A stretch of 64,000 nt of DNA, taken from NCBI GenBank assembly GCA_000830295.1, contig CP010425.1, positions 806,884 through 870,883 on the forward strand. Reading direction: 5' to 3'. This DNA comes from an archaeon GW2011_AR15 (lineage in GTDB: Archaea > Nanobdellota > Nanobdellia > Woesearchaeales > GW2011-AR15). Numbering within the stretch: position 1 is the stretch's first letter; every line of letters starts with the position of its first letter. This document shows, in pieces, positions 16,654 through 48,084 of this stretch. The notes below the pieces were generated by a model that was not told where the DNA came from, ran no database searches, and saw only the letters and a list, made by a program, of their open reading frames with translations. Both the position numbers and the translations under genes were made by a program.

Positions 16654-16699
16654 ATAGTCCCCCTCAGCAGAATAATCTCCACAATTAAAAAGATTTGGC

Positions 16700-18828: not shown

Positions 18829-21800
18829 CTAGGATAATATCTTTAATTTTTTCTTCACCTCTGCTGGTTTTTTCTTTGCCTGCTCATCATAAAGATTCAC
18901 GAGGGGAGTCTGCACGCCAAGTTCTTTGCAGAGTGCTGCTATCCTCTTTACCCTTTCTTTCCTTATCTCATAAGTGTTAGTCAGATCTGAAGTATGCCAC
19001 TTGTAAAACCCGTCATTTTCATTAGGCACAACAATTCCTGCCTTTTCCGGCTCGGCTGTAAGATTTGTTCCTGCTATTAATAAACATGGAGTAAGGCTTG
19101 AAATCATCTTTATATATTTGGCGTGGCTCTTTACAAAATCATAAGTTTCCATAAATTCTTTTTCGCCTTCACCAGGGTATCCGATTATAAGGTTTATGCC
19201 GATAGTTATTCCTGCATTGTGCATCCTCGGCAGCAGGTCCTGCAGATGTTTCATCCTGTAGGGCTTGTTCATTTTCTCAAGCACGGTATCAGAGCAGCTT
19301 TCAACACCGAACACCATCACTCTACAGCCGGCCATCCTCATTTTCCTCAAAAGCTGGTCTGACATTCTTGAGTTTACAATTCCCTGGGCAGACCAGTTTA
19401 CCTCCAGGTTCCTCTTTATTATATGGTTGCAGATCTCTTCCAGAGCCTTCAGATTCCCGTTGATGACAAGGTCCCTGAAATTAAAGCTGTTAACCCCGTA
19501 GTTTTTTATGTGCATCTCCATCTCATCCACGACATCCTTGGCAGGCCTTGCAGTGTAATTTGCCCTGTACATCCAGTCAAGGCAGAAATTGCATCTTGCG
19601 ACACATCCCCTGCTGGCTATCATAGGAAGGGAATTTTCTTTGTATTTTTTCAGGTTAAATTCCATAAAAGTAGGAGATGCCAGTTCTCCAAGGTCCTTTT
19701 CAAAATGCCATGGATGCATCTTCTCTTTTTCTTTTCTCGGGCCTAATTCCCCAGAGCTGTTGGCTTTTAACACAACCACGCCAGGCAAGTCTTCAATCGG
19801 CTGATTTTCTTTTAATCTTTGGACTATTCTCGGCATCATTAACTCCGCTTCCCCTATCACAGCGAAGTCAATATAATCCTTCATTTCAGACTGCCAGAAA
19901 TAGCCATCGTCGCTGTTAGGGCCGCCTATGCATATCTTTAGCTCAGGATTGTTTTTCTTGAGGATCTTTGCCAGCATGCATGAAAAATTATAATTAGCAG
20001 CATTTACAGACAGGCCTACAAGCACAGGCTTGTCATCCATGATCCGCTTTATCATATTGTTCATATATGGTTTATAATTCTGGAAGAGGTATTCGTGGAA
20101 TTTTTCTTCAGACCATTTGAAATATTCCTCCATGTGCCATGCCCTCTTATCATTTTCAGGCGCAAGATTATAGAGGTCAATATTCATATCAAAGACTTCA
20201 GTTTTTACTCCGTGCTTTTTCAGGTTTGAAGCAAGGTATGCAATGCCGAGAGGAGGCATCAGGACATCCCACGGCGGGCACATGATGAGGAAGACGTCGG
20301 TTTTTCTCACTATCTCTTTTTCTTTATACCCGGCAAAAGCAGAGAGATTATCTTCATATACCTCAAGATTTAATTCTTTGGCAAGATTAAGTAATCTTCT
20401 TAATCTCCCTTTTCTTATGCTGTCTGTATTAGTTCCGTCTTTTGTCCTCCACCTGACTTCAGCTACACTATTATCTTCAGGCAGGATAATCCCATATTCG
20501 TCTTTGTTTTCCATGAGTTCTGAGTTGTATACAACATTGCAGGTTTTTGCATTGCAAATTCTATCAATGTACTGCCTATTTCTTTTTATGAAATCAAGGG
20601 TCATCTGGAAATCCTCTTCTGTTTCCCCAGGATAGCCTACTATGAAGTTTGGCTGGGCATTAATCCCCATTTCATAGGAATATTTCAGAACTTTCTCTAT
20701 TGTTTCAATAGTTGTGTATTTTTTCATTGCTTTCAATATCCTATCAGATCCGGTCTCAACACCGAACATCAAAACATCACACCCGGCCCGCTTCATCTTT
20801 TCCAGCAATTTCTGTGTAAGATTTTTCATTGGTATGGCATTGGCAACCCACCCTATTTTCAACTTATGACTTATAATAAGATCACAGAATTTATTTAGTT
20901 CGGGTATATTGCCATTTATCAGCAAATCACTAAAATTAAATTTAGTAATTCCTTTCTGGACATGATAATAAATCTCCTGGAATACCTGCTCAGCAGGCCT
21001 TACCCTGAACTTTCCCATTATATTCACATCATTGCAGAAAGTACATTCTCCAATGCATCCTTTAGAAAAATAGAGGGCAATCCTCTCCTGGGCGATATAA
21101 TCTTTATTGTAGTCTATTTTCAGGGCTTTAGACTTGCTTAGGTCAAATGCTTCCCTTTCTTTAAACTTTCCTTCATGCCGGAAGATAAAAATACCGGGAA
21201 TACCTGAAATTTCAAGATAGGTTTTTTTTGCTTTTATAGCATCCACCAGTTCTATAATTGCTTCCTCTCCATCTCCAACCACAAAATAATCTATGGTTGA
21301 CTTCCTGAATCTTTCCAGTTCTCTCTTTACAGAGCATGAAGGCCCGCCGACTACAATTTTTACATTATTATCAATATTCTTAATTAATTTAGCTAATTCT
21401 ATGATCATTAATGTATTTTCCTGATAGGCGGAAAATCCGATAACTCTGGATGTCTGCACCAATTCTTTTGCAAATTCAACCAAATCCACCTTAAATCTCT
21501 TTTTTAATTCTTCAAAGAAAGGATATTCTGTCCAGTTGATTTTTAAATCCTGGTGCCAGTATTTCTGCAGGTCTTTATGGCGCCTATACAGCTTTAGATT
21601 TATATCACATATCTCCGCATTGAGTCCATGTGAAACCATATATTCTTTCAGGTAATTTACCCCAGTCGGCGGAGTATTCACTCCCCATACAGGGCAGACA
21701 ACAAGTGCCAGATCCACAGGTTCATTCTTTTTCTTGTCCTCCCCTGACTGCGATAGATTTGAGAAATACACATCATAGCCGAGCTCTTTTACAAATTCAT

Positions 21801-23130
21801 ACGCTCTTTTTGCCCTGTCTAACCTTACTTCATAAGTAAGCGTTCCGTCTGACCACGCTACAGGGTCAGTACTCGTTATTCCCAGCCTTCCGGAAGCAAG
21901 GCCTATAGGCGCTCTTTTGGGAAGAATGCAGGTATTGATGTTAGTTATACCTGTTATCACATCCCTGTTCCTTTTTATGAACTGGAGAGTCTCCTGGAAC
22001 TCCTCTTCCGTCTCTCCAGGATAGCCGACTATAAAGTTTGGCTGCACATTGATTCCTGCCTCCCTTGTCCACTTCATTATCCTTTCTGCATCTTCTGCTG
22101 AAAACATCTCATACTTATTCATCTTCTTGAGCACAGAGTTTGAGCCTGACTCAATCCCGAAATTAATAGTGTAGCAGCCGGCGTCCGCCATTTTGAAGAG
22201 AAGCTCTTTCGGCATGTCCTTTCTTGCAATGGCCAGGCATATCCATTTTATTTTCAGGTTGTTTCCGATTATCAGGTTGCATAATTTTTCCAGTTCTTCA
22301 TAGTTTCCGTTTATTGCAAGGTCATGGAACCAAAAATGTGCAATCCTGTTTACATAGGCATGATATCTTAGTTCATTATAGACATCGACTGGGTCTCTTG
22401 TCCTGTGGTGGCCCTGGAACGGCTTGTCCTCACAGAATCCGCAGTTTGCTATGCATCCCTGTGAGAACCTCATGCCTATTGTCTTTTCAGTATATCTGGA
22501 CAGGTCGAGTTCTTCATAGGTAGGGAAGGGAAGTTTTTCCAGGTCAATAAGCTGTCTTGGAGCATATTTCTCAGGATATTTGCTTGATTTCAGACCTTTT
22601 ATTTCTGATAGTTGCTCAATAGATTTTCCTCTCTTTATTCCCTGCATAAGCTCAAGAATTGTATCCTCTCCTTCCCCAACAACAAAAAAATCAGCATAAT
22701 CCTTGTAATATTCCCTTTCTTCAGGCAGCCATACGCCCTTCCCGCCGAGGATTATTTTTATGTCTTTGTCTAGGAATTTTACAGATTTCATCAGCTCAAA
22801 GGAGTAGAAAATGCTTGCTGCGGATATTGAAAACCCAAGGGCAAGCGGTTTTTCATCCGCTATTCTTCTGGCGAGTTTCTCAAAATCAAACTTCAGCAGA
22901 GGCTTCAGCTTTTCAAACCTGTCTTTCTCCATCCAGAAATGGGCTTTTTCGTTTATCCAGTATCCCTTATCCTTTGCCCGATGATATTCCTCTATATTCA
23001 GGTCCAGTATCTTTGTTGCTATGTCATTTACCCTAAGGTATCTGGAGATGGATGCCAGGCTCATCGGAGGCATGTTTATTCCCCATACAGGGCACTGAAT
23101 CAGGAGTATATCCGGTTGTATGCATATCAC
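18829..23130 (-). CDS. Triple-module cobalamin-binding radical SAM fusion protein (three complete B12-binding plus radical SAM units in one 1433-aa polypeptide)
   Basis: Three CxxxCxxC cores spaced ~470 aa apart: SQGCIANCGFCEDKPFQGHHRTR, SKGCIGECTFCNDVNIMGKFRVR, SRGCVARCNFCLDWMYRANYTAR. Each is preceded by a class-B N-terminal motif (LIQCPVWGINMPP, LVVCPVWGVNTPP, LIMCPPWDVLMPP). The reading frame is uninterrupted. Confidence 0.75.
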   Translation of the reverse strand: MICIQPDILLIQCPVWGINMPPMSLASISRYLRVNDIATKILDLNIEEYHRAKDKGYWINEKAHFWMEKDRFEKLKPLLKFDFEKLARRIADEKPLALGFSISAASIFYSFELMKSVKFLDKDIKIILGGKGVWLPEEREYYKDYADFFVVGEGEDTILELMQGIKRGKSIEQLSEIKGLKSSKYPEKYAPRQLIDLEKLPFPTYEELDLSRYTEKTIGMRFSQGCIANCGFCEDKPFQGHHRTRDPVDVYNELRYHAYVNRIAHFWFHDLAINGNYEELEKLCNLIIGNNLKIKWICLAIARKDMPKELLFKMADAGCYTINFGIESGSNSVLKKMNKYEMFSAEDAERIMKWTREAGINVQPNFIVGYPGETEEEFQETLQFIKRNRDVITGITNINTCILPKRAPIGLASGRLGITSTDPVAWSDGTLTYEVRLDRAKRAYEFVKELGYDVYFSNLSQSGEDKKKNEPVDLALVVCPVWGVNTPPTGVNYLKEYMVSHGLNAEICDINLKLYRRHKDLQKYWHQDLKINWTEYPFFEELKKRFKVDLVEFAKELVQTSRVIGFSAYQENTLMIIELAKLIKNIDNNVKIVVGGPSCSVKRELERFRKSTIDYFVVGDGEEAIIELVDAIKAKKTYLEISGIPGIFIFRHEGKFKEREAFDLSKSKALKIDYNKDYIAQERIALYFSKGCIGECTFCNDVNIMGKFRVRPAEQVFQEIYYHVQKGITKFNFSDLLINGNIPELNKFCDLIISHKLKIGWVANAIPMKNLTQKLLEKMKRAGCDVLMFGVETGSDRILKAMKKYTTIETIEKVLKYSYEMGINAQPNFIVGYPGETEEDFQMTLDFIKRNRQYIDRICNAKTCNVVYNSELMENKDEYGIILPEDNSVAEVRWRTKDGTNTDSIRKGRLRRLLNLAKELNLEVYEDNLSAFAGYKEKEIVRKTDVFLIMCPPWDVLMPPLGIAYLASNLKKHGVKTEVFDMNIDLYNLAPENDKRAWHMEEYFKWSEEKFHEYLFQNYKPYMNNMIKRIMDDKPVLVGLSVNAANYNFSCMLAKILKKNNPELKICIGGPNSDDGYFWQSEMKDYIDFAVIGEAELMMPRIVQRLKENQPIEDLPGVVVLKANSSGELGPRKEKEKMHPWHFEKDLGELASPTFMEFNLKKYKENSLPMIASRGCVARCNFCLDWMYRANYTARPAKDVVDEMEMHIKNYGVNSFNFRDLVINGNLKALEEICNHIIKRNLEVNWSAQGIVNSRMSDQLLRKMRMAGCRVMVFGVESCSDTVLEKMNKPYRMKHLQDLLPRMHNAGITIGINLIIGYPGEGEKEFMETYDFVKSHAKYIKMISSLTPCLLIAGTNLTAEPEKAGIVVPNENDGFYKWHTSDLTNTYEIRKERVKRIAALCKELGVQTPLVNLYDEQAKKKPAEVKKKLKILS

Positions 23131-23204
23131 CCTCAGCTACAGAATACTTAGGATTTTATATAATATACGAAAAACATAAATAAACTTAATTTAATTAAGT
23201 AGTC
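23131..23204. promoter_or_regulatory. AT-rich divergent intergenic region with a TATA-like box, likely bidirectional promoter
   Basis: 74-bp gap between the divergent starts of the 1433-aa radical SAM gene (-) and the AsnB-like gene (+). Contains ggattttatataatatacg (TATA-box-like) at 23151-23169. Confidence 0.35.
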
Positions 23205-25070
23205 ATGGGGTTTTTTGGAGGTATTGTCTTAAAAGACAGGAATCTACCTGCCGGGCTGCTCACAAAACCGGAGAAAATCGGGGAGTTACGGTTCAGCGCC
23301 GGCAAAAAACTGGTCAAAAAGAGGAATTTGGCCGTATACTTATCAGGAAGCATAACAGACTTGTTTACAGAAGATTACAAGCTGCCGCTTAACCATCAGG
23401 AAGAGCTTATTTTGGATATGTATACCAGATATGGCGAGAAATTCATCAGATTCCTTGATGGTTATTTCGTAATTTTTGTTTATGATATTAAAAGAGGAGA
23501 GTTCTTTATATTTAATAACAGGTATTCAAACACTTTTTGCTATTACTATCTCTCTGATGATTTTCTTGTTTTCTCTGATATGATTAAGCCCCTGCTTAAG
23601 CTAACCCCAAATAAAGAAGTCAATAAAGAGGTAATAAGCCTTTTCCTGAATTCAGGATTCTCTTTCTCTGAAAGAACCCCATTTAAGCATATCTACAGGA
23701 TGATACCCGGCTTCTATCTTAAATCAAAGAAAGGCAAAATAAGCCATGTCAGGTATTCAGGAATGGAGTTTAACAGGAGACCAGTTAAAGATGTGCCAAG
23801 GGCGCTGGAAGAGTACGAAAGACTATGGGTAGATGCCATAAAAAAATTTACAAAATATAATAAGACCGGGAATCTCGGAAGTGCGCTTAGCGGAGGCCTC
23901 GACACTTCATGGGTTGTGCTGGCAGCCTCAAAAGCATTTGACAAGCCGGTCCATACATACAACTGCTACTATGATTTCACTCTTTTTAATGAAATCAGAC
24001 CTGCTTCTTATGTCACAAGAAAATGCAAAGGAAAATTCCACAAGATAAAGGTTTCTGAGGAGGATATAGATCTTTGGCCTGAGATAATAAGGGCTGCTGA
24101 GGAGCCAGTCATGTCATCTTCTGTTTCCATATATAAAATGATAAGGGAAGCAGGGAAGGAAATCGATACTTTCCTCACAGGAGATGGGGGGAACAACATA
24201 TATCACCACCTTTATCCGGTCGGGGAGATACATAGATATATCCACTTCCTGCCATATTTTGTCAGGAAAGCGATGTATGAAATTATTGATTTTACCGCAA
24301 ATCTTACAAGCTGGGAAAGGCTATGGGAGCTGAAATATGCATTCCGCCCGTTTTCATATAAAAACCCCTATCGGAATTTCTATAAGAACCTGATATGCTA
24401 CAGGCACTTCAGCCCTGAGCAGAGAGATAAGCTGCTTAACCCAGAGTTCCACGAGGAGTTTGATGAAGAAAAATCATTGGGCTATATCCCAATCAGGAAG
24501 GAAAGTTTTGATAATGATCTTGTTGACAACAGATTCGTGCACGGGAATATGGAATATGTAAGCACATTCCAGGAGAAATTTGTAAAGAAATTCGGCATGA
24601 GGCTGTTCCCGCCATACCAGAATAAGAAAATAATGGATTTTCTCTGCTCCCTTCCTTTTAATTTGTTATTCAGGGCCAACAGTCTTCAGAAGCTTACCAA
24701 TAAAGCAAACAAGATGCATTTCCAGAAGCTCTCTCTGTTAAGGTATTTCCCTAAGTCCTTTGTCTACAAAACAGGACAGCCCTTTGACCAGCCCTTTCAC
24801 GGATGGCTGCAGAGAAGGCCTGAAGTCGTAAGATTGCTCTTCGAAAGATTGAAAAGAAGAGGATGGTATAATAATGATTATTTGGATGAACTTTACAGAG
24901 AGCATAGGAGACAGCGCCAGCATAAAAAAATACTCTGCCAGCTCCAGAACCATGGATACAGAATAATGACTCTGCTTGCTCTCGAGATATGGTGTATGGA
25001 ATTCCTTGACAGGGACCCGGAAAAAGAAACCCAGAGGATGCCGCTTGAGGAGTATCTGAAAATAAGATGA
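23205..25070 (+). CDS. Asparagine-synthetase-like PP-loop amidotransferase lacking the glutaminase nucleophile
   Basis: Starts MGFFGG, with Gly where AsnB has Cys2. Keeps the PP-loop ALSGGLDTSWVV. 621 aa. Confidence 0.65.
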   Translation: MGFFGGIVLKDRNLPAGLLTKPEKIGELRFSAGKKLVKKRNLAVYLSGSITDLFTEDYKLPLNHQEELILDMYTRYGEKFIRFLDGYFVIFVYDIKRGEFFIFNNRYSNTFCYYYLSDDFLVFSDMIKPLLKLTPNKEVNKEVISLFLNSGFSFSERTPFKHIYRMIPGFYLKSKKGKISHVRYSGMEFNRRPVKDVPRALEEYERLWVDAIKKFTKYNKTGNLGSALSGGLDTSWVVLAASKAFDKPVHTYNCYYDFTLFNEIRPASYVTRKCKGKFHKIKVSEEDIDLWPEIIRAAEEPVMSSSVSIYKMIREAGKEIDTFLTGDGGNNIYHHLYPVGEIHRYIHFLPYFVRKAMYEIIDFTANLTSWERLWELKYAFRPFSYKNPYRNFYKNLICYRHFSPEQRDKLLNPEFHEEFDEEKSLGYIPIRKESFDNDLVDNRFVHGNMEYVSTFQEKFVKKFGMRLFPPYQNKKIMDFLCSLPFNLLFRANSLQKLTNKANKMHFQKLSLLRYFPKSFVYKTGQPFDQPFHGWLQRRPEVVRLLFERLKRRGWYNNDYLDELYREHRRQRQHKKILCQLQNHGYRIMTLLALEIWCMEFLDRDPEKETQRMPLEEYLKIR

Positions 25071-26506
25071 AAAAAATGAAAGTCATGTTTGTAATTTCTC
25101 CAGACAGCAACAAGGGGAGATATATCTTCAAAAATACAAATATAGACTCTTTTCTTCCTCTCGGCATAGCCCAGCTTTCTGCTGTATTAAAGGAAGGAGG
25201 CCATGAGACAAAAGCTGTTGACCTCAGGATTACAAGGAAACTAACCCAGGCGGTCATGGAATTCCAGCCGGACATTATCTCAGTTTCATCATATTTCAGC
25301 TCAATAGCCCGTCTTCAGAAGCTGTGCAGGTTCCTGAAATCCAGATTTGATACCCACATTGTTCTTGGCGGAATCCATCCTTCATTATACCCGATTACGA
25401 TATTTGACGACAATGCCTCAACAGACTACATTCTTGATGACTCCATTGATTTTGTAATAACAGGCGAGGGAGAAGTTGTTTTTCCCCAGCTCCTGGAAAA
25501 CCTCCAGAAGAAAAAATTCAGAAACATACCCGGGCTCTATTACAGGAAGAAAAATAAATGGATAAAAAACAAGGGAAGGCCGCTTGTAGAAGACCTTGAT
25601 AAACTTCCTTTTCCTGATTTTGATATCTTTGAATTGAAATATTATGTCCCCAATCCAAAACATTACAAAAGGACGCCGGTAATGTCGATGTCAGCAAGCA
25701 GGGGCTGCACCTGGGGCAGATGCACTTTCTGCTGGCAGTCGCATCTGGACGGATATTACAGAAAGCAGTCTCCTGAAAGAGTAGTTGCAGAGATAAAGCA
25801 TGCTGTTGAAAAATATGGGGTCAGGGAGATAAGATTCTGGGATGACACATTCCTCCACAAGCATTCATGGATCTTGAGATTCTGCGACCTGATGATTAAA
25901 GAGAAGCTTGGCGTCATATGGAGCTGCCACGAGCGTGTCAGCGTGGTTACCCGGGAAATCCTGAAAAAGATGGCCAAAGCAGGATGCTGGCAGGTGCTTT
26001 ATGGCATTGAGTCAGGGTACAAAGCCCTTCTTCAGGATGTAAATAAGGGGATAACAGTTGAACAGGCAAAAAGGGCAGTAAAATGGACCCAGGATGCAGG
26101 CATGGAAGCGAGAGTATCTTTTATACTCGGCCTGCCTAATGAAACTCCGGAGATGACAGAGGAAACAATAAGATTCGCAAAAAGCCTTAATGCAGATATA
26201 ATCCAGTTCAGTCTCATGACTCCATATCCCGGGACAAAAATGTATGCAGATATAAAAAATTCAGAGGGGCTCAACAGAAACATATTTGACTATACAGAAA
26301 TACAGCCGGTTTACCTGTCCAAAGGATATAGGAGATATAGTGATCTTGAAAAGAAATTCAGGAGAGCATATAGGACAATATACCTTGATCCTGCGTATGT
26401 TTTTAGAACTTTAAAGAAAATAAAAAGCCTTGAGGATATAAAAAGATATTACAGCGGGCTGAAGGCAATGATCGGGCTGAGCTATGGCAGGAGGACCTGG
26501 AGTTAA
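25067..26506 (+). CDS. Cobalamin-binding (class B) radical SAM protein
   Basis: SASRGCTWGRCTFCWQSHLDGYYRKQ CxxxCxxC. N-terminal B12-like domain. 4-nt overlap with the upstream AsnB-like gene. Confidence 0.75.
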   Translation: MKKMKVMFVISPDSNKGRYIFKNTNIDSFLPLGIAQLSAVLKEGGHETKAVDLRITRKLTQAVMEFQPDIISVSSYFSSIARLQKLCRFLKSRFDTHIVLGGIHPSLYPITIFDDNASTDYILDDSIDFVITGEGEVVFPQLLENLQKKKFRNIPGLYYRKKNKWIKNKGRPLVEDLDKLPFPDFDIFELKYYVPNPKHYKRTPVMSMSASRGCTWGRCTFCWQSHLDGYYRKQSPERVVAEIKHAVEKYGVREIRFWDDTFLHKHSWILRFCDLMIKEKLGVIWSCHERVSVVTREILKKMAKAGCWQVLYGIESGYKALLQDVNKGITVEQAKRAVKWTQDAGMEARVSFILGLPNETPEMTEETIRFAKSLNADIIQFSLMTPYPGTKMYADIKNSEGLNRNIFDYTEIQPVYLSKGYRRYSDLEKKFRRAYRTIYLDPAYVFRTLKKIKSLEDIKRYYSGLKAMIGLSYGRRTWS

Positions 26507-28243
26507 ATGGAAGATTCAAGGAAGATACATTATTTCTTTTTGGTTCTTGTATTCCTGTTTGGGTGCTACGGGGCATATGTAAATTATAAGGTCCTGCAGG
26601 AAGACACTACCCCCTTTATTTATGATATCCTGAATAGCTATGTGACAAGCATTGATCATTACAGGTTCCTACAGCAGGGAGATATCATAGGATTTATCAA
26701 TCATTACATCACTAAATATTCACGGGACTATCCTGCACTTTATATGTTCCAGACTTTTCCTTTCTATGCTATCTTTGGGATCAGCGAAGATGCCGCAGCT
26801 ATGTCCAATACAATTTATCTTTTCATCCTTCTATTTTCAGTATATTTCATAGGAAAGAAAATGAAGAATTCCTATGCAGGTTTTCTTTCAGCTTCAATAG
26901 TACTCTTCATTCCCGGAGTGCTGTCTTTCTCCAGGGTTTACCTTCCTGACTTCGGTCTTGCAGCATTTTTTCTGTTAAGCCTGGCTCTTTTCCTTTATTC
27001 TGACTTTTTTAGAGATAGGAAGTACTCTATCCTTTTTGGGGCCTCTGCAGGGCTTGGCATGCTCATCAAATATACCTTTTTTGTGTATATTGGAGTGGCT
27101 CTGTTCATATTATACTTAAGGCATCTTAAGAACGAAAAAAAACTTCTTCTCACTAAACAGCAAAGAAGCAATCTCATGATTTCACTGTCTATTGCAGTTT
27201 TATTTATGCTATTGTGGTACCCCATGAATTTTTTAAATGCTCTTGGGTATATCACAAGAAAATCTTCTTATGATGCTACTGTGGCATTTAATGATACAGG
27301 CATATTTCAAAGATGGAATCTTGTAATGGATAGGTATGTCTTTGAGATGAATGACATGCTGGCGGGATTTGTTTATCCTGTTTTTTTGATAATAGTATTA
27401 TTACTCCTGGAAAAAGTTTTTTCCCGCCGAAAGACCCAGGAAAAGAAAACAATAGAACTGCAAGACCTGGTCTACATCTCACTTATTATTTTTTTATTCT
27501 CCCTGAATTCCACGGCATCTGTAAGATATCTAATATTTATGCTGCCTTTTGCAGCCCTGCTCATTGGAGTTTACATATACACTAAATTTGATATTTTTCT
27601 CGGTTATTTTAAGAACAGGAATGAGACAAAATTCATGGTATTTGTGCTTCTTGTACTCCTTCTTGTATCATCAGCAGGCTCATATTACAGCGCATGGCTT
27701 GAACAAAAAAAACCTGCAGAAATAGCAGATGACATATTCATATATGGACTCCAGGTGCCAAAACACCACCATAATAAGCATATAGAAATTATTGAAGCAA
27801 TAAACAGAAGAATGGAAGGACTCAACGGCCTTTCTGTGCTTTCATTCCAGGAGTCTGAGGTTATGTATATTGTATCTCATTCCAAGCACCTGTCGGGCTA
27901 CGGCTATGAATTTCCGCCTGCCTGCCTTACGACTCCAGATTACGTCGACAGGGGAAGCTGTTATATCCCGGAGGAAATAAACTGCGATTGGTATTTCCTG
28001 CAGAATGATATTATAATAGACTCAGACATCCATACAAGCATAAAGACGGCTGAAGTATGGGCCAAGTTCCCTGAAAGAAAAGAAATCCTGGACGAGATTC
28101 TTAATGTGTGGGAAAGCTGCAAGGAAAATTATATCCTGGCGGAAACAATAGAGGATGTGCCTGTTTTAACAAGCTATATCCCCAGAGAGTATACAAATTC
28201 GACATTGTATCTGTATGTGAAAAAATCCAAGCTTAGTTCTTAA
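26507..28243 (+). CDS. Polytopic membrane protein, possible GT-C (ArnT/PMT-like) glycosyltransferase
   Basis: 578 aa with ~11 predicted TM helices and a C-terminal soluble domain. Immediately follows the B12 radical SAM gene. Confidence 0.45.
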   Translation: MEDSRKIHYFFLVLVFLFGCYGAYVNYKVLQEDTTPFIYDILNSYVTSIDHYRFLQQGDIIGFINHYITKYSRDYPALYMFQTFPFYAIFGISEDAAAMSNTIYLFILLFSVYFIGKKMKNSYAGFLSASIVLFIPGVLSFSRVYLPDFGLAAFFLLSLALFLYSDFFRDRKYSILFGASAGLGMLIKYTFFVYIGVALFILYLRHLKNEKKLLLTKQQRSNLMISLSIAVLFMLLWYPMNFLNALGYITRKSSYDATVAFNDTGIFQRWNLVMDRYVFEMNDMLAGFVYPVFLIIVLLLLEKVFSRRKTQEKKTIELQDLVYISLIIFLFSLNSTASVRYLIFMLPFAALLIGVYIYTKFDIFLGYFKNRNETKFMVFVLLVLLLVSSAGSYYSAWLEQKKPAEIADDIFIYGLQVPKHHHNKHIEIIEAINRRMEGLNGLSVLSFQESEVMYIVSHSKHLSGYGYEFPPACLTTPDYVDRGSCYIPEEINCDWYFLQNDIIIDSDIHTSIKTAEVWAKFPERKEILDEILNVWESCKENYILAETIEDVPVLTSYIPREYTNSTLYLYVKKSKLSS

Positions 28244-29636
28244 TCATGCTTATGCCGGCTTTAACATATCTCTCCAGCTCAGGAAGAGACTGCACTCTTG
28301 ACAGCGTCCTCAGAACAAAAGAAGGCCTGAAATAGAACTCCATGTATGCTTTCTTTATCCACCTGTTAAGCTCTTTATCAGACATTCCGCATCTTAGCCT
28401 TGGAAGAGGATGCTCAACTCCTCTGTCTTTCACATATTCCCTCCAGTAATCATATCCCATCTCAGACTTGAGCTCTTCATACATTGTCGTGCCAGGGAGG
28501 GTGCTTAATCTGTTGAACTGGGCATAGTCAAGCGGGAGGGATTTTGCAAGGTTTATTGTATTTCTTATTGATTGCCTTGTTTCCCCCGGATTGCCAAACA
28601 TGAAGTAGCCGAAAGCAAGTATCCTGTGCTTTTTCGTCAGGTAAATTGCTTTTCTTATCTGCTGCTTTTTTGTGAATTTTTTTATGTTTCTTAAGATCTG
28701 TTCATCCCCTGATTCAATGCCGAAGTAGATCCTATAGCAGCCTGCCTTCTTCATCTCTATCAGCATCTCTTCATCTATTGTGTCAACCCTTGACCTGCAG
28801 GACCAGGCAATTCTTATCTTTCTTTTTTGTATTTCCATGCATATCTCTATTACCCTTTTCTTGTTTATTGTAAACAGAGGATCAAAAACATCGATTTCCC
28901 TTACTTTGTACCTGTAATAGCATTCTTCCATCTCATCAGCAACATTCTTTGCGCTCCTGTACCTTATGTCGCCGCTTCTCTGCTCGCAGAAAGTGCACTG
29001 GAAAGTGCAGCCTCTGCTGGACATCAGGATTGTGTAATTCCTGTATTTTGAGATGAATGAATAATATTTGCTCATCGGGAGGAGATTCCTTGCCGGGAAA
29101 GGTATACTGTCGAGGTCTTTTATCTTCTCCCTTGGTTCCGTCAACACAATTTTTTTATTTTCCCTGTAACATATCCCTTTTACGGTTTTCAATGATTTTT
29201 TCTTCTCTATCTTTCCAAGAACCTCAATAATGGACTTTTCAGCCTCTCCGACAATGCCGATATCTATCACCTTTTTTAGCAGGGTTTCTTTAGGGAACAA
29301 GGTGACATGCTGTCCTCCTACAATAACTTTTGCGGGCCATTTTTCCCTGAAATAGCCAATTACCCTGGCTGTCTCGTGAAAAAGGTAGGTTGTGACTGTG
29401 AACATCATTATATCCGGCCTGAATTTTATTACTCTTTCAGCCATGTCATTTAGAGAATAGCCTGAAGCCATCCCGTCAAGAAAAATAAGCTCGTGGCCTG
29501 CTTTCTGCAGTGCCCCTGCAACATAGGCCAGGCTGATATTCGGGTAGATACCATAGTTGTCTGCAACCGCCTTTATATTCGGCTGATTGACTACCGAGAC
29601 AACTCCAAAAGCAGGGTAAATAAGCGCAATCCTCAT
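28233..29636 (-). CDS. Cobalamin-binding (class B) radical SAM protein
   Basis: SSRGCTFQCTFCEQRSGDIRYR CxxxCxxC. N-terminal MRIALIYPAFGVV... B12-type Rossmann region. Confidence 0.75.
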   Translation of the reverse strand: MRIALIYPAFGVVSVVNQPNIKAVADNYGIYPNISLAYVAGALQKAGHELIFLDGMASGYSLNDMAERVIKFRPDIMMFTVTTYLFHETARVIGYFREKWPAKVIVGGQHVTLFPKETLLKKVIDIGIVGEAEKSIIEVLGKIEKKKSLKTVKGICYRENKKIVLTEPREKIKDLDSIPFPARNLLPMSKYYSFISKYRNYTILMSSRGCTFQCTFCEQRSGDIRYRSAKNVADEMEECYYRYKVREIDVFDPLFTINKKRVIEICMEIQKRKIRIAWSCRSRVDTIDEEMLIEMKKAGCYRIYFGIESGDEQILRNIKKFTKKQQIRKAIYLTKKHRILAFGYFMFGNPGETRQSIRNTINLAKSLPLDYAQFNRLSTLPGTTMYEELKSEMGYDYWREYVKDRGVEHPLPRLRCGMSDKELNRWIKKAYMEFYFRPSFVLRTLSRVQSLPELERYVKAGISMIKN

Positions 29637-29674: not shown

Positions 29675-29881
29675 CTAGTCAAGATATCCGAGGGATTTCA
29701 GCCTTTCTGCAATCTCAGTCTGGTTGTATTCTCTGCTTTCACCGGTGTAGTTGGTATCTTGATTGCCTTTATTTCTCAGCAAATAGACAATCTCCTCTTT
29801 GTTACTATAAACGAACAGAGAGATAATTACCAGGAATAAAATTACAGCGATTATAATCAATTTTTTTATTGAGTGTTCCAT
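29675..29881 (-). CDS. Small single-TM protein (68 aa) ending in the ...ERLKSLGYLD motif
   Basis: Hydrophobic helix IIIAVILFLVIISLFVY, then a 40-aa polar tail. 16-nt overlap with the upstream gene. The C-terminal motif is shared with two neighbouring enzymes. Confidence 0.4.
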   Translation of the reverse strand: MEHSIKKLIIIAVILFLVIISLFVYSNKEEIVYLLRNKGNQDTNYTGESREYNQTEIAERLKSLGYLD

Positions 29882-31065
29882 ATTCCCATTAGCCTGTTAA
29901 TCCTTTCTTTCTCCATTCTGGACGACCGGTATATAGTCTCCCTTTTTCCCTGCCTGTTGAAATAAGGGAACCAGTATTCCCATACAATCTCTTTATCCGG
30001 GGTGACTTCTATTACATGGCCTTTCTCGCTCTCTGAAATCAATGTGTTCCCATTAGGCAGCCTCTGGACAGAGCCCATAGACTCGCTGAAAAAGCTGTCA
30101 GGCGGATTGCCTGTATAATTCCAGACAATCTCCTGCTTCAGCGGGTCCAGCTCAAGCACTCTGGAATAATCTCTCGTTTCTCCTCCGTTGTCAAAAAGGA
30201 GTATGTTTCCGTTTGCCAGCATCGTAGGCATATGAGTGCCTTCCAGAAAATCAGGCCCTGATGCCCACACAATCTCTTTTGAATCTTTATCCAGGATAAT
30301 CAGCAGGTTGACATTATGCAGGCTCAAAAGCATGTTTCCCTGCTGAAACCTGCTGTCTGTCTGGTCCAGGCTATTTTCAGGCAGCTCCTGGACAGAGTTT
30401 ATGTGATAATAGTCATATATATCTATATTGTCATCTTCTTTGGCAAACAATTTTGCCCATATGTATTCCGGAATTTCAAGGCTGGATTCATAATGGCGTT
30501 TTCTAATCTCATCAAAATGGTCAAATGTTGACCACCTGTCTATTGTCTCCCCGGTTTCAGATATTCTTATTATGCTGTCAAATAATACTTTTCTGCCCTT
30601 ATAGGCTTTCTTTTCCCTTGATATTGTCAGGAAAGTGTGATTGTATGACCTCCTCATGTCATGGTGAATCATTATGTTTTTTTTCAAGAGCAATGAAAAA
30701 TTTTTGTCATATAGTGCAAAATAGTTGTCATTGCCTCCCCAATCCCCGTCAGCTACTACCCCGTCATCAAATAATATCTGCAGGTTCCCGTCTCCGGGGA
30801 GAGTCACCAAAAGGTTGCCTTCCATATCGATTATAAACCTGCCGTCAACTACAGTGTAGCCGTCATATGCCCTGTCTTTGTCATAAAGCACAACTCCAGA
30901 CAGGTTCCTGTCCTGCACATCTTCTGTGTATTCCAGATAAGGAAGAGACCTTAATTTCTCAAGCCCGAGCTGGGACCTATACTCAGCTTCCATATATGAA
31001 GAAAACACTGAAAAGAGTCCAAATAGGATGAGCAGCACAATGCCGAAGATAAGTATCCTTTTCAT
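29866..31065 (-). CDS. Membrane-anchored beta-propeller protein, arylsulfotransferase (ASST)-like
   Basis: N-terminal TM helix. Repeated propeller-like segments (GNILLFDNGG, PNGNTLISESEKGHVIEVTPDKEIVWEY, DYYHINSV). The ASST assignment is tentative. Contains EKLRSLPYLEY after the TM helix. Confidence 0.45.
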   Translation of the reverse strand: MKRILIFGIVLLILFGLFSVFSSYMEAEYRSQLGLEKLRSLPYLEYTEDVQDRNLSGVVLYDKDRAYDGYTVVDGRFIIDMEGNLLVTLPGDGNLQILFDDGVVADGDWGGNDNYFALYDKNFSLLLKKNIMIHHDMRRSYNHTFLTISREKKAYKGRKVLFDSIIRISETGETIDRWSTFDHFDEIRKRHYESSLEIPEYIWAKLFAKEDDNIDIYDYYHINSVQELPENSLDQTDSRFQQGNMLLSLHNVNLLIILDKDSKEIVWASGPDFLEGTHMPTMLANGNILLFDNGGETRDYSRVLELDPLKQEIVWNYTGNPPDSFFSESMGSVQRLPNGNTLISESEKGHVIEVTPDKEIVWEYWFPYFNRQGKRETIYRSSRMEKERINRLMGIWNTQ

Positions 31066-31066
31066 A

Positions 31067-31873
31067 TTACATATAGCCGAGGCTTCTCAGTTTCTGCATA
31101 TTATATTCTTTCTCTGTGTCCCTGCCCTGCCTTTCTGAGTTTCTGTCTTTGTCTATCTCCTTTATTATTTTGTCGATTGTATCTGCTCTGGATTTTACAG
31201 GGGAAGAGCAGCATTTGCAGCCGATGCTCCTGAACCTTTTCCCGTCTTTGGCAAAATACAGATTCACGACAGGGATATTCTCTTTTTTTATGTATTGCCA
31301 GATATCCAGCTCTGTCCAGTGGAGTAAAGGGTGTATCCTCACATGGTTGGAGTCTTTGAATTCTGTTGCATATATATCCCATCCTGACAGTTCTGCATCC
31401 TGAGCTGAGCCTATGCCTGCTTCATTCTTCTCTTCTTTCGTGACATTCCACCTGAATTCCCTGTCTCTTGGGGAGAAATATCTTTCCATGCCCCTTATTG
31501 AATTCTCGTCTCTCCTTATGCCTACTATAACTGCATCGAATTTGTGCTTTTCAATCTCCTTTTTCAGTATCTCGGTTTTTCTTGACGTGCATGTTTTTTC
31601 TTTGAACTTTTCTTCGCTTTTCCCGACCACCAGGTCAAGTTTCCACTCTTTTGCAATCCTGTCCCTGAATTCATATGTTTCCTCATACTCTGTTTCAGTA
31701 TCTATGTGCAGGACTTTGAAGGGGATCTCGTCGTAGAATGCTTTTCTGCAGAGATACAGCAATGTAGTGGAATCTTTCCCTATGCTCCACAGCACAACAG
31801 GGTTCTTAAATCTCTTCTTTACTTCCCGGAGTATGAAGATTGATTTGCTTTCTAAATCCTTCAAATTTGCCAT
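31067..31873 (-). CDS. Sulfate adenylyltransferase small subunit (CysD)-like PP-loop ATP pyrophosphatase
   Basis: LWSIGKDSTTLLYLCRKAF PP-loop. HPLLHWTELDIWQYI and SERQGR motifs, consistent with my recollection of CysD/PAPS-reductase family proteins. C-terminus ...QKLRSLGYM. Confidence 0.7.
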   Translation of the reverse strand: MANLKDLESKSIFILREVKKRFKNPVVLWSIGKDSTTLLYLCRKAFYDEIPFKVLHIDTETEYEETYEFRDRIAKEWKLDLVVGKSEEKFKEKTCTSRKTEILKKEIEKHKFDAVIVGIRRDENSIRGMERYFSPRDREFRWNVTKEEKNEAGIGSAQDAELSGWDIYATEFKDSNHVRIHPLLHWTELDIWQYIKKENIPVVNLYFAKDGKRFRSIGCKCCSSPVKSRADTIDKIIKEIDKDRNSERQGRDTEKEYNMQKLRSLGYM

Positions 31874-31919: not shown

Positions 31920-33206
31920 TTAAATGAGATATCCAAGGGAGAGAATTCTTTTTCTGATCTCATCACTTACATCATGCTCCCTTTCCGCAATTCCTATCTT
32001 TTCCCTGAGTTTGTCATTCCTCTGCAAAAACTTGAGGTATTCATCTTCAAATCTTTTGCCCGGATACAGCAGGCTATTTTTTTCAAGAGGGTCATTGGAA
32101 AGGTTGTAGTATTCAAAGTAATCGGGCCTTAATATATATTTTTCAGTTTCAGTCCTTATCGAGATTCCGCCCCTTGTTTCTGTAAAGAGAAATTCATGGA
32201 GCCTGTCTTTTTTTCCTGCAATTAAATCATATGTGCTTTTTCCCTGGAATGTTTTTGGCAACCTGTATCCGAGCGTATGCAGTATTGTTGGTGCGATATC
32301 CAGGGACTGGACCTGGGCAGTGATTCTTTTTACATTTACATCAACTTCTTCAGGAAACCTTATTATCATGGGGACTTTGATTATCTCCTCATACGGGTCG
32401 CCAAGCCCGTGGCCTATTTTTCCGTGCTCCAGGAATTCTTCCCCATGGTCTGATGTGAAAATTAGTATTGTATTGTCCAGAAGTTCAAGTTCTTCCAGCT
32501 TACTATATAACCTTCCAATATACTGGTCATATTCATGCAGCTCAGAATCATAGGCGTTTTTTATTATTTCAACATCACTTTCATTTAATATGCTGAATTC
32601 CTCTTCCTCCCACAAATCAAAATCAGGCTTGCTCATGTTTAGTATCTTGCTCGGCTGGTTGTATACATGAGTGTCATATGAATGTATGAAAAGGAAAAAC
32701 CTCCTGTCTTTCACTTCCTCAAGATGCTTTATCAGCTTTGGGTAAAAATCAGAAAAGGACTGCCCTTCTTCATCATCAAAGAAATCAAATCCTTGGTCGT
32801 ATCCGAAGTCCCTGCTGACAAAAACATCCCCGGTATAGCCGAAGGTGTAGTATCCCTTTCCCCGCAGGAACTTCTGTATTGTCATTGTGTTCGGGTTTAT
32901 GAAATTGTCAACTGAGAGGACGCCGTGTGCTGAGCCGTATAAAGAAGCCAGCATGCTCACATGCGAAGGCAGGGTCCAGTCATAATTCACAAAGGCATTC
33001 TCGAACAATACGCCTTTTTCAGCCAGCCTGTCTATGTTTGGGGTCACATTGCTGTTTCCATAGGCTCCAAGACGGTCTGCCCTTAGGGTATCCTCGGATA
33101 TCAGGATTACATTATACTCCTTTGGCTTTTGGATTACATCTGCAATTACAGTTATAGAGATTACGACAGTTATAAGCAGGAAAAAGAAAATCAGGACTTT
33201 TTTCAT
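31920..33206 (-). CDS. Sulfatase-family (alkaline phosphatase superfamily) enzyme, secreted or anchored
   Basis: Signal/TM, then ILISEDTLRADRLGAYGN metal-binding motif and DWTLPSHVSMLASLY active-site region. C-terminus ...KRILSLGYLI. Confidence 0.7.
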   Translation of the reverse strand: MKKVLIFFFLLITVVISITVIADVIQKPKEYNVILISEDTLRADRLGAYGNSNVTPNIDRLAEKGVLFENAFVNYDWTLPSHVSMLASLYGSAHGVLSVDNFINPNTMTIQKFLRGKGYYTFGYTGDVFVSRDFGYDQGFDFFDDEEGQSFSDFYPKLIKHLEEVKDRRFFLFIHSYDTHVYNQPSKILNMSKPDFDLWEEEEFSILNESDVEIIKNAYDSELHEYDQYIGRLYSKLEELELLDNTILIFTSDHGEEFLEHGKIGHGLGDPYEEIIKVPMIIRFPEEVDVNVKRITAQVQSLDIAPTILHTLGYRLPKTFQGKSTYDLIAGKKDRLHEFLFTETRGGISIRTETEKYILRPDYFEYYNLSNDPLEKNSLLYPGKRFEDEYLKFLQRNDKLREKIGIAEREHDVSDEIRKRILSLGYLI

Positions 33207-35107
33207 TTTAAGAGAGGCTTGCCGTCAATCTGCTCTGGCATACTTATATTCAGGAAATTCAGCACCGTCGGCGCAATGTCAACAAGGCTGGCTGAGTCCT
33301 GATTGATCTGTTTATTTGAAAACAAGACACCAGGCACAAATGTCGGGTCTATAAGATGGTCTCCCTGCCATTTTTTTGTGTTGTCAAGTATTGCATTCCT
33401 CGTGAATCCGCCGATTGCGGACTGCCATTCCATCCTGTATCCCGGATTGAAGCCTATTATGAGGTCAGGGGCATTCTCAAGCGAGTCTCCGGAATAGATG
33501 TCTCCTCTCCTGTAAACCTTATTTATAACTTTCCTTCCTGTTTTTGGGTCTGTCAGATTTTCAAGCTTTTCAATTATCTCATTTTCCACTGCCTCTTTAT
33601 CATCTATGCTTACTGTCCCGTGCTTTTCCCTTCCTTCAAGATTTATGTATATGCTGGAGAAGCCGACAGAATATGCTTTTGTCTCATCCCATATCACATA
33701 CTCAAACAGGCTGTCTTCCACACCCTGCTTTATTACTGTGTTAAGCTTCATGAATCCGTTCTGGGAAAGCCAGGTGTTTATGTTGACAGCGCGCTCAAAT
33801 GAGCTGAATCCGTGGTCTGAAAAAATCAGGACCATGGTGTCATTGCCTACTTCTTTCATTATCTTGCCAAGCAGCTCGTCTTTCCTCATATAGTAGCCTG
33901 TGAGGACCTCATTCATGACAATCTCATCAGAGATGTTGGTCAGCACTTTGTTGTCCCAGAAAAGATGCTGCAGCCTGTCAGATGAATCAAATGCAAATGC
34001 CAGCACACCGGTTTCCTTCTCCTTGAATTCATTGAATTCTTTCCAGAACATGGCTTCCCTTTCCTTTTCTATTTCATAGACCTGGCTGAGGAATGCTTTT
34101 TCATCTAGGAAGCCGTTTACATATCCATCGGTTTCTTCAGGCATCCCTAAAGTGTAATACAGCCCGAGCTCATCTGCCAGCTCCTTTGCATAACCTTTGG
34201 GTGAAGAAATATCAACAATGGGGTTTGTCGGGTCAATCTGGACTGTTGTTATGTACATCTGGAAGGGTTCAGTGCTTATCAGGTATGCCTTGAACATGCC
34301 GTGCACACTCCTGAGGAAACCGGCATCAAACTTCACTTTTACCCAGTCGCTCCATTTCTCCCTGTCCAGCTGGTACTCCCTTCCGTCTATGGTTAGTATG
34401 GCAGAATATTCGTCTGTTATTTCAATATCCATGCCTTCTTTTACGTCCTCTATTTTGCTGAATTTCCTGACTTTTGGGCCGAGGACATTGGTGTGAATTG
34501 ACGAGCCTTCTTTTGTTACATGTATTACTTTCTGCTTGTCTATATCTTCTTCTGTGTAGAAAGCATAGCCGCTCAGGAACCCCTTTATGTCAGGGACTCC
34601 AAGGCCCGAGAACAGGTTTCCATTAACCTTTTCAGGCGGAAAAGTTGCAGGCCACCTTATTACTGAAGTCGGAATTCCTGCCTTGCTTGTAAGTTCCCAG
34701 AAAGGGGTTGCCCTTATCAGAGAGGCATAGCTTCCTCCGAATCCTTTCTGGCTTGTTATTGAAAGCTCAGGGAGGTAGGTCTGCGGATCCCTTATTATGA
34801 AATCAAACATATTGTGCTTCCCAGGATTTGTCCCTGTGGAGATTGAAGTCCAGGCAACAGGGCTTTCAGGAGGATTGCTTGTTTCAAGCTTCAGGAATGC
34901 ACCTGTTTCAGCCAGTTTCTTGAAATTTGGAAGTTTTCCTTCTGCCATAAGCTTGGCAGTTGCCTTATAATCCATGGCATCTATCCCAATAAGAAGAACC
35001 TTGCCTTTTGGACTGATTTTATCTCCCCCCTTTGAAAGCGCAAATATGAAATACAGGATAACTACAATAACCACGACGTTAATAAACCTTTTTAATGCCT
35101 TATTCAT
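33203..35107 (-). CDS. Alkaline-phosphatase-superfamily type I phosphodiesterase / nucleotide pyrophosphatase-like protein
   Basis: N-terminal TM helix, then VLLIGIDAMDYKATAKLMAEGKLPNFKKLAETGA, typical of the Phosphodiest (ENPP-like) family. 634 aa. Confidence 0.65.
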   Translation of the reverse strand: MNKALKRFINVVVIVVILYFIFALSKGGDKISPKGKVLLIGIDAMDYKATAKLMAEGKLPNFKKLAETGAFLKLETSNPPESPVAWTSISTGTNPGKHNMFDFIIRDPQTYLPELSITSQKGFGGSYASLIRATPFWELTSKAGIPTSVIRWPATFPPEKVNGNLFSGLGVPDIKGFLSGYAFYTEEDIDKQKVIHVTKEGSSIHTNVLGPKVRKFSKIEDVKEGMDIEITDEYSAILTIDGREYQLDREKWSDWVKVKFDAGFLRSVHGMFKAYLISTEPFQMYITTVQIDPTNPIVDISSPKGYAKELADELGLYYTLGMPEETDGYVNGFLDEKAFLSQVYEIEKEREAMFWKEFNEFKEKETGVLAFAFDSSDRLQHLFWDNKVLTNISDEIVMNEVLTGYYMRKDELLGKIMKEVGNDTMVLIFSDHGFSSFERAVNINTWLSQNGFMKLNTVIKQGVEDSLFEYVIWDETKAYSVGFSSIYINLEGREKHGTVSIDDKEAVENEIIEKLENLTDPKTGRKVINKVYRRGDIYSGDSLENAPDLIIGFNPGYRMEWQSAIGGFTRNAILDNTKKWQGDHLIDPTFVPGVLFSNKQINQDSASLVDIAPTVLNFLNISMPEQIDGKPLLK

Positions 35108-47910: not shown

Positions 47911-48084
47911 TTCTCAGGATCCCGGAAATATCTTATGCCTCTTTACCTTCTCCCAGGCAAGAAGAAACACATCAATAACAAGCGTTAAGCCTAATAGATA
48001 AATTAAGCCCAGCCATTTGAATATACTTTTCCTCATTTTTTGAGCAGAATAGAATTCAATATTTAAGTTTATCCTGATAAACAC

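Follow-up and report, generated by a model that had tools for sequence, protein, structure and literature searches.

A Cys-less AsnB homologue encoded in a conserved cassette with a B12 radical SAM protein and a predicted GT-C glycosyltransferase in a putative archaeal surface-glycan cluster

AsnB-type enzymes are known from glycan loci, where WbpS, WbqG and PGN_1234 convert (di)N-acetyl-hexuronic acids to uronamides (PMC7468200, PMC6025236). Lasso cyclases of the McjC type belong to the same superfamily and form isopeptide or lactam bonds in an ATP-dependent manner. Here, we looked at a locus within a 64,000-nucleotide stretch of the archaeal contig CP010425.1 (this whole stretch is called the window), in which the gene of an AsnB homologue lacking the N-terminal cysteine (the AsnB-like gene) is followed by those of a B12-binding radical S-adenosylmethionine (SAM) protein and of a GT-C glycosyltransferase. 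Two other AsnB-fold enzymes, beta-lactam synthetase (BLS) and CarA, have no Cys1, and the hydroxyamidotransferase TsnB9 (PDB 7ylz), from polyketide (trichostatin) biosynthesis, couples a non-amino-acid carboxylate to an unusual nitrogen nucleophile, its N-terminal hydrolytic site being still functional. Cys-less AsnB-fold enzymes are a recurrent source of unusual amide and lactam chemistry (beta-lactams, lasso peptides, hydroxamates), and B12 radical SAM enzymes perform chemically difficult alkylations. The class B members AprD4, GenK, Fom3, HpnJ, BchE, OxsB and TokK, grouped here as enzymes of sugars and lipids, share with the radical SAM protein of the locus an N-terminal B12-binding domain and a radical SAM core. 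As for the third gene, enzymes of the GT-C class use polyprenyl-phosphate-linked sugar donors on the outer face of the membrane, and in the Arn and Gtr systems a tailored sugar carried on polyprenyl phosphate is moved outside the cell, a logic similar to that of the cassette described below.

Cys-less AsnB-fold ligases, class B radical SAM enzymes, GT-C transferases and AsnB homologues of glycan loci are all known kinds. What is new is a Cys-less archaeal clade with a conserved coupling to a clade of B12 radical SAM proteins with a Cx4Cx2C motif and to a GT-C protein. Literature and PDB searches returned no description of the AsnB-like/radical SAM pairing or of archaeal AsnB-like glycan enzymes.

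A conserved three-gene cassette

The four large open reading frames (ORFs) reported for this region by an initial annotation were all recovered at the same coordinates (Table 1). The ATG of the first radical SAM gene sits within the TGA stop of the AsnB-like gene, giving an ATGA overlap at 25067-25070 by which the two genes appear to be translationally coupled. The GT-C gene begins on the base next to the TAA (26504-26506) of this radical SAM gene. A second B12 radical SAM gene is convergent with the GT-C gene, and the last 11 bp at its 3' end are shared with the end of the GT-C gene, stop included. Upstream of the AsnB-like gene, the divergent intergenic region presumably acts as a promoter: a TATA-like TTTATATA is read at 23155-23162, 43-50 nt ahead of the ATG, and no Shine-Dalgarno sequence was found in these 74 bp.

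To define the conservation of this layout, 13 independent related loci were assembled from species-representative genomes, metagenome contigs and contig look-ups. The window proteins were placed on them by tblastn, and the locus searches were based on alignment A2, alignments A1 and A3 being too diverse. The gene order of the cassette was repeated in independent metagenomic loci with 42-78% amino-acid identity, which places the arrangement beyond chance. The most conserved partner of the AsnB-like gene is the first B12 radical SAM gene: its orthologue (36-74% identity) lies 0-1 gene downstream in 10 of the 13 loci, so that the coupling proposed in the initial annotation holds well outside the window. 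Two further loci (L001/L018 and L011) have a different B12 radical SAM gene (about 29-31% identity) at most 3 kb away. Moreover, the contigs that encode the top database relatives of the coupled radical SAM protein also encode AsnB-like proteins. The link to the GT-C gene was also found again, an orthologue (22-31% identity, alignment A4) being present in six of the eight loci with enough flank; in L002 and L006 it is the very next gene after the B12 gene, and in L001, L007 and L010 it is at most two genes away. Altogether, these results indicate that the three-gene layout is a genuine conserved cassette.

Other genes follow the cassette less closely. The second B12 radical SAM gene has orthologues (49-66% identity) in L002, L006, L007, L010 and L012. 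Contrarily to the three-gene order, the divergent pairing with the upstream gene, which had been regarded as part of the arrangement, is conserved only in the closest relative, L013. A GDSL-like and a SPASM gene are found inside the cassette of some loci; they were considered as core members and rejected, as the window has neither and their presence varies from locus to locus.

Table 1. Features of the window discussed in the text (positions counted from the first letter of the window)
Feature	Position	Strand	Remarks
Cys-less AsnB-superfamily gene	23205-25070	+	621 aa; starts MGFFGG
B12-binding radical SAM gene	25067-26506	+	479 aa
Predicted GT-C glycosyltransferase gene (PMT_2/PMT)	26507-28243	+	578 aa
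Second B12-binding radical SAM gene	28233-29636	-	467 aa
68-aa ORF	29675-29881	-	38 bp upstream of the second B12-binding radical SAM gene
Divergent intergenic region	23131-23204		74 bp, AT-rich; sequence read directly
Three-module B12 radical SAM gene	18829-23130	-	1433 aa; divergent from the AsnB-like gene
Canonical glutamine-hydrolysing AsnB gene	12140-13996	-	starts MCGIFG
Wzt (ABC ATPase + Wzt_C glycan-binding domain) and Wzm (ABC-2 permease)	48085-50675	-	
56-aa ORF	47914-48084	-	18 kb from the cassette, after wzt
Further radical SAM gene	10055-11263	-	
Further radical SAM gene	14037-15251	-	
Further radical SAM gene	15235-16653	-	
Further radical SAM gene	36607-37782	-	
Further radical SAM gene	40524-41549	-	
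Further radical SAM gene	41550-43247	-	
ASST-like gene	29866-31065	-	membrane-anchored product
CysD-like gene	31067-31873	-	adjoins the ASST-like gene
Sulfatase-family gene	31920-33206	-	
Alkaline-phosphatase-superfamily gene	33203-35107	-	between the two sulfatase-family genes
Sulfatase-family gene	35338-36615	+	

The coupled radical SAM protein scores above the Pfam cutoffs for both the B12-binding domain (PF02310, 59.2 bits, cutoff 32.1) and the radical SAM domain (PF04055, 91.4 bits, cutoff 29.5), and its nearest solved relatives are AprD4, OxsB and TokK. It differs from these class B enzymes by its cluster motif, CTWGRCTFC (residues 214-222), which has a Cx4Cx2C spacing instead of Cx3Cx2C. 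In the clade that accompanies the AsnB-like gene (P0024-P0042) this one-residue insertion is kept, as CxWGxCxFC, whereas most relatives further away show the ordinary Cx3Cx2C spacing. The second B12 radical SAM protein has a canonical CxxxCxxC motif.

The GT-C protein is above the Pfam cutoffs for PMT_2 (36.5 bits, cutoff 26.1) and PMT (33.9 bits, cutoff 22.7). About 11-12 transmembrane (TM) segments are predicted, together with a soluble C-terminal part of about 180 aa. Like ArnT/PMT-type enzymes, it is polytopic and has conserved acidic residues in its first loops, which are predicted to be extracytoplasmic: D33, E94 and D95 are invariant in six orthologues, which also have in common the motifs LxxDxT after TM1, DYP, GxSED and SR. 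No sequence match to any solved GT-C was obtained, and the similarity to the Agl23 model is weak (25 bits against a cutoff of 126).

Loss of the glutamine site and retention of the synthetase core

In Pfam, the AsnB-like protein is recognised as Asn_synthase (PF00733, E 1.4e-26); a second, weak match, to the class-II glutamine amidotransferase fold (GATase_7), is just over its cutoff (27.4 bits, cutoff 25). From its first residues, the initial annotation had concluded that this protein cannot hydrolyse glutamine. A longer start supplying an N-terminal Cys is ruled out by an in-frame TAA at 23196-23198, two codons 5' of the ATG. Cys1 is absent from all full-length members inspected, residue 2 being G, Q, D, K, E, A or T in the homologues, including divergent ones at 28-37% identity. 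We then looked at the rest of the domain by alignment with canonical AsnBs, including that of the window. In the AsnB-like family, the HRGPD segment is deleted, NGEIYN is changed to LxGxIT and (S/T)D(S/T)E to xQEE, and about 25 residues are deleted. Since motifs of the glutamine site are lost across the domain, the glutaminase site is thoroughly gone, well beyond one mutated residue.

In contrast to the glutamine site, the PP-loop is retained, as had been noted before, and is far from degenerate. It reads LSGGLDTS, and S229, G230, G231 and D233 are invariant in alignments A1, A2 and A3. E263, E300-P301, G326 and about 20 further positions are also invariant family-wide among members at 28-67% identity. 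These patterns argue that the synthetase core of the family is under constraint. The AlphaFold2 model (predicted local distance difference test, pLDDT, 90.3; predicted template modelling score, pTM, 0.91) adopts an AsnB fold of two domains: an Ntn (glutaminase-like) domain, which is degenerate, and an ATP-pyrophosphatase domain that carries the PP-loop.

The family, of which the window protein is the founding member, is narrow. A database search gave about 18 close relatives at 53-67% identity, followed by a drop to canonical AsnB at 20-24%. Likewise, in a profile search of 1.84 billion cluster representatives (clusters at 50% identity), about 18 representatives scored 264-998 bits and canonical asparagine synthetases at most 195 bits. 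The AsnB-like clade therefore appears small, rare and sharply bounded, and it reaches no curated family cutoff. All of its assignable loci are archaeal.

Comparison with known enzymes places the AsnB-like protein close to none of them. A single-sequence phmmer search against PDB sequences gave no match. With the model, Foldseek retrieved TsnB9, BLS, human ASNS, CarA and E. coli AsnB (E 1e-15 to 1e-19), all about equally distant at 13-15% identity each. TsnB9 is the best match in both structure and profile (Foldseek E 1.6e-19, profile E 1.2e-12), at 14% identity. BLS and CarA (1jgt, 1m1z and 1q15; Foldseek E about 1e-16 to 1e-18, TM score 0.52-0.71) share with the AsnB-like protein a two-domain AsnB fold in which a non-catalytic, Cys-less N-domain is joined to an adenylating PP-loop domain. 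By analogy, the AsnB-like protein could plausibly work as they do, by adenylation and subsequent closure of an intramolecular amide. However, the profile match to CarA (E 2e-4) covers the PP-loop region only, the AsnB-like protein exceeds BLS and CarA by about 120 residues and has a helical insertion around residues 340-470, and these two enzymes come from actinobacterial or enterobacterial antibiotic clusters rather than from an archaeal glycan cluster. As for the enzymes of glycan loci, the WbpS-type model TIGR03108 (eps_aminotran_1) is the best NCBIfam match, at 113.4 bits, with its cutoff of 816.9 not reached. WbpS-type enzymes and the AsnB-like protein are alike in being AsnB-superfamily members encoded within a surface-glycan cluster, but the latter has neither Cys1 nor any of the glutamine site, so that glutamine cannot be its nitrogen donor, and it has a B12 radical SAM and a GT-C protein as partners.

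The likeness to BLS and CarA raises the question of a small-molecule or lipid pathway, in which a beta-lactam or carbapenam-like synthetase would work with B12 radical SAM alkylases, or the head group of an archaeal lipid would be modified. ThnM acts with ThnK/L/P in thienamycin biosynthesis, and in such clusters a Cys-less AsnB homologue and class B radical SAM enzymes do co-occur. Furthermore, B12 radical SAM enzymes modify archaeal and bacterial lipids, and weak matches to TIGR04072 and HpnJ were obtained with the radical SAM proteins. On the other hand, BLS and CarA are no closer to the AsnB-like protein than are AsnB or ASNS, no CarB, CarC, crotonase or other antibiotic-pathway gene was found in the window, and the conserved third partner is a GT-C protein in surroundings made of Wzm/Wzt and glycosyltransferase genes. 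We consider such a pathway improbable.

Probable glycan tailoring and a proposed mechanism

The cassette lies in a 45-kb cluster that contains Wzm/Wzt with Wzt_C, two GT2 and three GT4 genes and a carbamoyltransferase gene, together with genes for a CysD-like protein, a membrane-anchored ASST-like protein and three membrane-anchored proteins of the alkaline phosphatase (AlkP)/sulfatase family. Because of the Wzm/Wzt export genes, the cluster is defined, from its gene content, as one for ABC-transporter-dependent surface-glycan biosynthesis. The PGI/PMI gene of the window also fits a glycan setting. The cluster stands out by an exceptional density of radical SAM modules, 13 in total, of which seven are of the B12 type in five genes and six are SPASM or other modules. 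The related loci likewise carry Wzm/Wzt, glycosyltransferases and NAD-dependent sugar epimerases, and Wzm/Wzt are close to the cassette in L002, L010 and L016.

A canonical AsnB gene is also present in the window, and canonical Cys-containing AsnB genes (41-54% identity) occur in L001, L002, L004, L010 and L012; in all, such a gene stands alongside the Cys-less paralogue in at least six loci. The presence of a canonical AsnB beside the cassette in organisms of usually reduced biosynthetic capacity suggests a glycan role and not asparagine supply. The window protein scores 514 bits with TIGR01536 (cutoff 267) and 495 bits with the WbpS-type TIGR03108 model, which makes it a candidate WbpS-like uronamide synthase and a better WbpS analogue than the AsnB-like protein. 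This greater proximity to WbpS suggests that the Cys-less paralogue does a different amide-forming step.

The initial annotation had left the choice between a module for glycans and one for peptides, and had pointed to the 68-aa ORF as a peptide gene. In the second case, the cassette would be a module for a ribosomally synthesized and post-translationally modified peptide (RiPP): the AsnB homologue would be a lasso-type or macrolactam cyclase acting on a ribosomal peptide (the 68-aa product, for instance) that would be C-methylated by the B12 radical SAM proteins. The small ORF does adjoin the second B12 radical SAM gene, and the radical SAM proteins weakly resemble RiPP methylase models. The lasso cyclase model NF033535 gives a weak similarity with the AsnB-like protein, but at 64.1 bits it falls far below the cutoff of 525. 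Besides, in L012 a His-Xaa-Ser (Hxs) peptide system, made of HxsD, an 88-aa ORF and two radical SAM proteins (14638-17910), is found 1.2 kb downstream of the AsnB-like/B12 cassette. Against this reading, the 68-aa product is anchored in the membrane by a TM helix at its N-terminus, the short tail behind this helix carries two N-x-T sequons, and searches with the product gave only chance matches and no homologue in any related locus; it is probably outside the module. We also looked for cognate small ORFs across loci. When 1,863 of them were compared all-against-all, none was conserved in the intergenic gaps beside the cassette, the matches at the cassette being all inside large conserved genes, in other reading frames. 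The window is densely occupied, and within the glycan cluster only two unassigned gaps of more than 60 bp hold small ORFs (68 and 56 aa). Finally, among window ORFs of at least 150 aa, no lasso partner was found and no PqqD/RiPP recognition element (RRE), transglutaminase-type protease, peptidase or C39-ABC exporter domain, and no free gap is left that could hide one, so that, contrarily to lasso loci, this one shows neither precursor, RRE nor leader protease; the partners of the AsnB-like gene are instead a GT-C gene and glycan genes. The lack of a conserved small ORF, RRE, protease and peptide exporter and the low lasso score make the RiPP reading very unlikely. Thus, of the two branches, the glycan one is favoured by the genomic context and the peptide one is not borne out, and glycan tailoring rather than peptide maturation is, in our opinion, the probable role of the cassette.

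We tentatively propose that the cassette carries out an ATP-dependent joining of a sugar carboxylate to an amine in the cytoplasm, giving an amide or a lactam, together with a radical tailoring step, followed by transfer by the GT-C protein outside the cell; this is the reading we lean to, at somewhat less than even confidence. Since no TM segment is predicted in the AsnB-like protein and its reaction would consume ATP, the cytoplasm is its expected site of action. There, it would adenylate the carboxylate of a sugar precursor by means of its intact PP-loop, the most plausible substrate being a uronic acid on a nucleotide or polyprenyl-phosphate carrier. A nitrogen nucleophile of another origin than glutamine would resolve the acyl-adenylate into an amide or a lactam; candidates are free ammonia, an amine, an amino acid and an amino group of the same sugar. 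The same sugar residue may then be methylated at an unactivated carbon, or altered there by some other radical chemistry, by the coupled B12 radical SAM protein, and the GT-C protein would attach the finished sugar to an exported glycan or a surface protein at the outer face of the membrane. In this scheme we infer the substrate, the nitrogen donor, the radical SAM chemistry and the order of the steps.

Several observations weigh against the proposed scheme. The coupled radical SAM protein is below all NCBIfam equivalog cutoffs (HpnJ, 200 bits against 578; BchE, 185 bits against 481), and its best matches, HpnJ, BchE and AprD4, are no simple methylases. In one of the 13 loci (L005/L016), no B12 radical SAM gene is found within 8 kb of the AsnB-like gene. 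In the window, no uronic-acid-forming dehydrogenase was identified. Furthermore, several residues close to the adenylate site depart from canonical AsnB in the close subfamily. In a profile alignment, LSGEGSDE of E. coli AsnB (344-352) is changed to LTGDGGNN, that is E348 to D, D351 to N and E352 to N by E. coli numbering (D327, N330 and N331 in the window protein). In the alignment with canonical AsnBs, RVPFLD is changed to FPPYQN, and the Lys of K-Q-G-F is aligned with a Gly. Catalysis by the AsnB-like protein could accordingly be altered or lost.

Such a loss would make the AsnB-like protein a pseudo-enzyme, serving as a non-catalytic scaffold or presenting the substrate to the B12 radical SAM protein, with a PP-loop used for nucleotide binding or folding. 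The altered motifs and the tight translational coupling to the radical SAM gene are in line with this. However, the PP-loop and about 25 other positions are invariant down to 28% identity, more divergent members retain GDxGD with its Asp, and a Lys two residues upstream of the lost K-x-G-F Lys is kept in the family consensus. An E348D variant of AsnB has been reported to retain activity, and the locus that has an AsnB-like gene and no radical SAM partner does not fit with a presenter role either. A pseudo-enzyme therefore seems unlikely to us.

The same motif changes bear on the substrate. As LSGEGSDE, RVPFLD and K-x-G-F are all altered, aspartate is not expected to be the substrate of the AsnB-like protein. 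This speaks against an ammonia-dependent housekeeping asparagine synthetase, an idea that would be allowed by membership of the Asn_synthase superfamily and by the fact that free ammonia can replace glutamine in AsnB. The TIGR01536 score of 103.8 bits is also well below the cutoff of 267.1, a canonical AsnB is encoded 9 kb away, and the AsnB-like family is rare and always inside glycan clusters. We give this explanation hardly any credence.

Returning to glycan tailoring, the conserved pairing with a GT-C protein in archaeal glycan clusters points to an undescribed modification of an envelope sugar. A more daring form of the proposal is a sugar modification without described precedent, in which a uronic acid would be both radical-alkylated or ring-rearranged by a B12 enzyme and, through a glutamine-independent AsnB-fold ligase, lactam-closed or amide-linked to an amine or amino acid or, bolder still, the ligase would make amide cross-links between chains of a sulfated heteropolysaccharide wall; we regard this as doubtful. 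On either version, if true, a radical-SAM-rich glycan chemistry would be a hallmark of the envelopes of DPANN archaea. The archaea with this cassette are poorly known and mostly uncultured, and their surface glycans probably mediate attachment to host cells. With three genes in about 5 kb, the cassette is a small bounded set suited to heterologous reconstitution.

Neighbouring genes of the glycan cluster and of the window

Six further radical SAM proteins are encoded in the glycan cluster, five of them with a SPASM domain (Table 1). None reaches any NCBIfam cutoff. The best match of five of the six is a tungsten-cofactor oxidoreductase maturase model (100-126 bits against a cutoff of 380), and that of the protein encoded at 40524-41549 is TIGR04133 (82 bits against a cutoff of 425). 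The SPASM proteins were considered as sulfatase-maturing enzymes (anSME). The two neighbouring sulfatase-family proteins lack the C/S-x-P-x-R formylglycine motif, one of them having WTLPSH at this place, and for this reason, as well as the scores of the SPASM proteins below the NCBIfam cutoffs, the nearby SPASM radical SAM proteins were not retained as sulfatase maturases. A third protein, of the alkaline-phosphatase superfamily, is encoded between the two, and all three carry an N-terminal membrane anchor. Judging from their sequences, the three resemble extracytoplasmic transferases or hydrolases that use a Thr nucleophile more than they resemble formylglycine sulfatases. The CysD-like protein, whose gene adjoins that of the ASST-like protein, passes the cutoff of NF003587 (280 bits against 195). 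As no CysN or APS (adenosine 5'-phosphosulfate) kinase was seen anywhere in the window, it is an orphan sulfate-activation subunit.

The gene divergent from the AsnB-like gene encodes a 1433-aa protein with three complete modules, each made of a B12-binding and a radical SAM domain and each with its CxxxCxxC motif (C226, C692 and C1176). The modules are 31-38% identical to one another. A database search gave 146 relatives at E<=1e-60. Many of these are 1,000-2,500 aa long and combine several B12 radical SAM modules, frequently with an added SPASM module; they come from metagenome-assembled genomes of Omnitrophica, 'Ca. Lernaella', Caldiserica, Cloacimonetes, Nanoarchaeota and Nitrososphaeria. 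No literature description of multi-module radical SAM megaproteins was found, and this three-module protein may be more surprising than the cassette itself.

Close to the Wzm/Wzt genes, the 56-aa ORF was the only conserved small ORF found in a free gap. It has a hydrophobic segment and a weak homologue (48% over 33 aa, E 5e-8) beside a GT4 orthologue in L006, and may encode a small conserved membrane protein.

As for the organism, relatives are labelled archaeon or Nanoarchaeota, and the related loci encode RadA, L21e, Rpb4, SepF and LonB. The window itself encodes an archaeal/eukaryotic-type MiaB-like-B protein (438 bits, cutoff 315) and an archaeal PGI/PMI (275 bits, cutoff 214). A pilin-like class III signal peptide, described below, is further evidence of an archaeal origin. 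The window belongs to a contig of at least 150 kb from a groundwater metagenome (PRJNA268031), and L013 is from Hainich groundwater. The host is a groundwater archaeon, probably of the DPANN or 'Nanoarchaeota' group.

Two observations concern the beginning of the window. The product of the ORF at 1923-2435 (- strand) has an N-terminus, MLKKAVSPLIATVLLVAMTISVG, that resembles an archaeal class III (type IV pilin-like) signal peptide; tandem ORFs of similar size follow at 2429-2902 and 2895-3371, and no Pfam match was obtained for any of the three. Finally, a 102-aa ORF (6127-6435, + strand) overlaps the 5' part of a 1068-aa ORF on the other strand (3381-6587). It is similar to two tandem ORFs of L004 (2941-3246 and 3301-3687), located just upstream of the orthologue of the window gene 6867-8336. 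This similarity suggests that the TTG-started ORF 3381-6587 may be over-extended at its 5' end.

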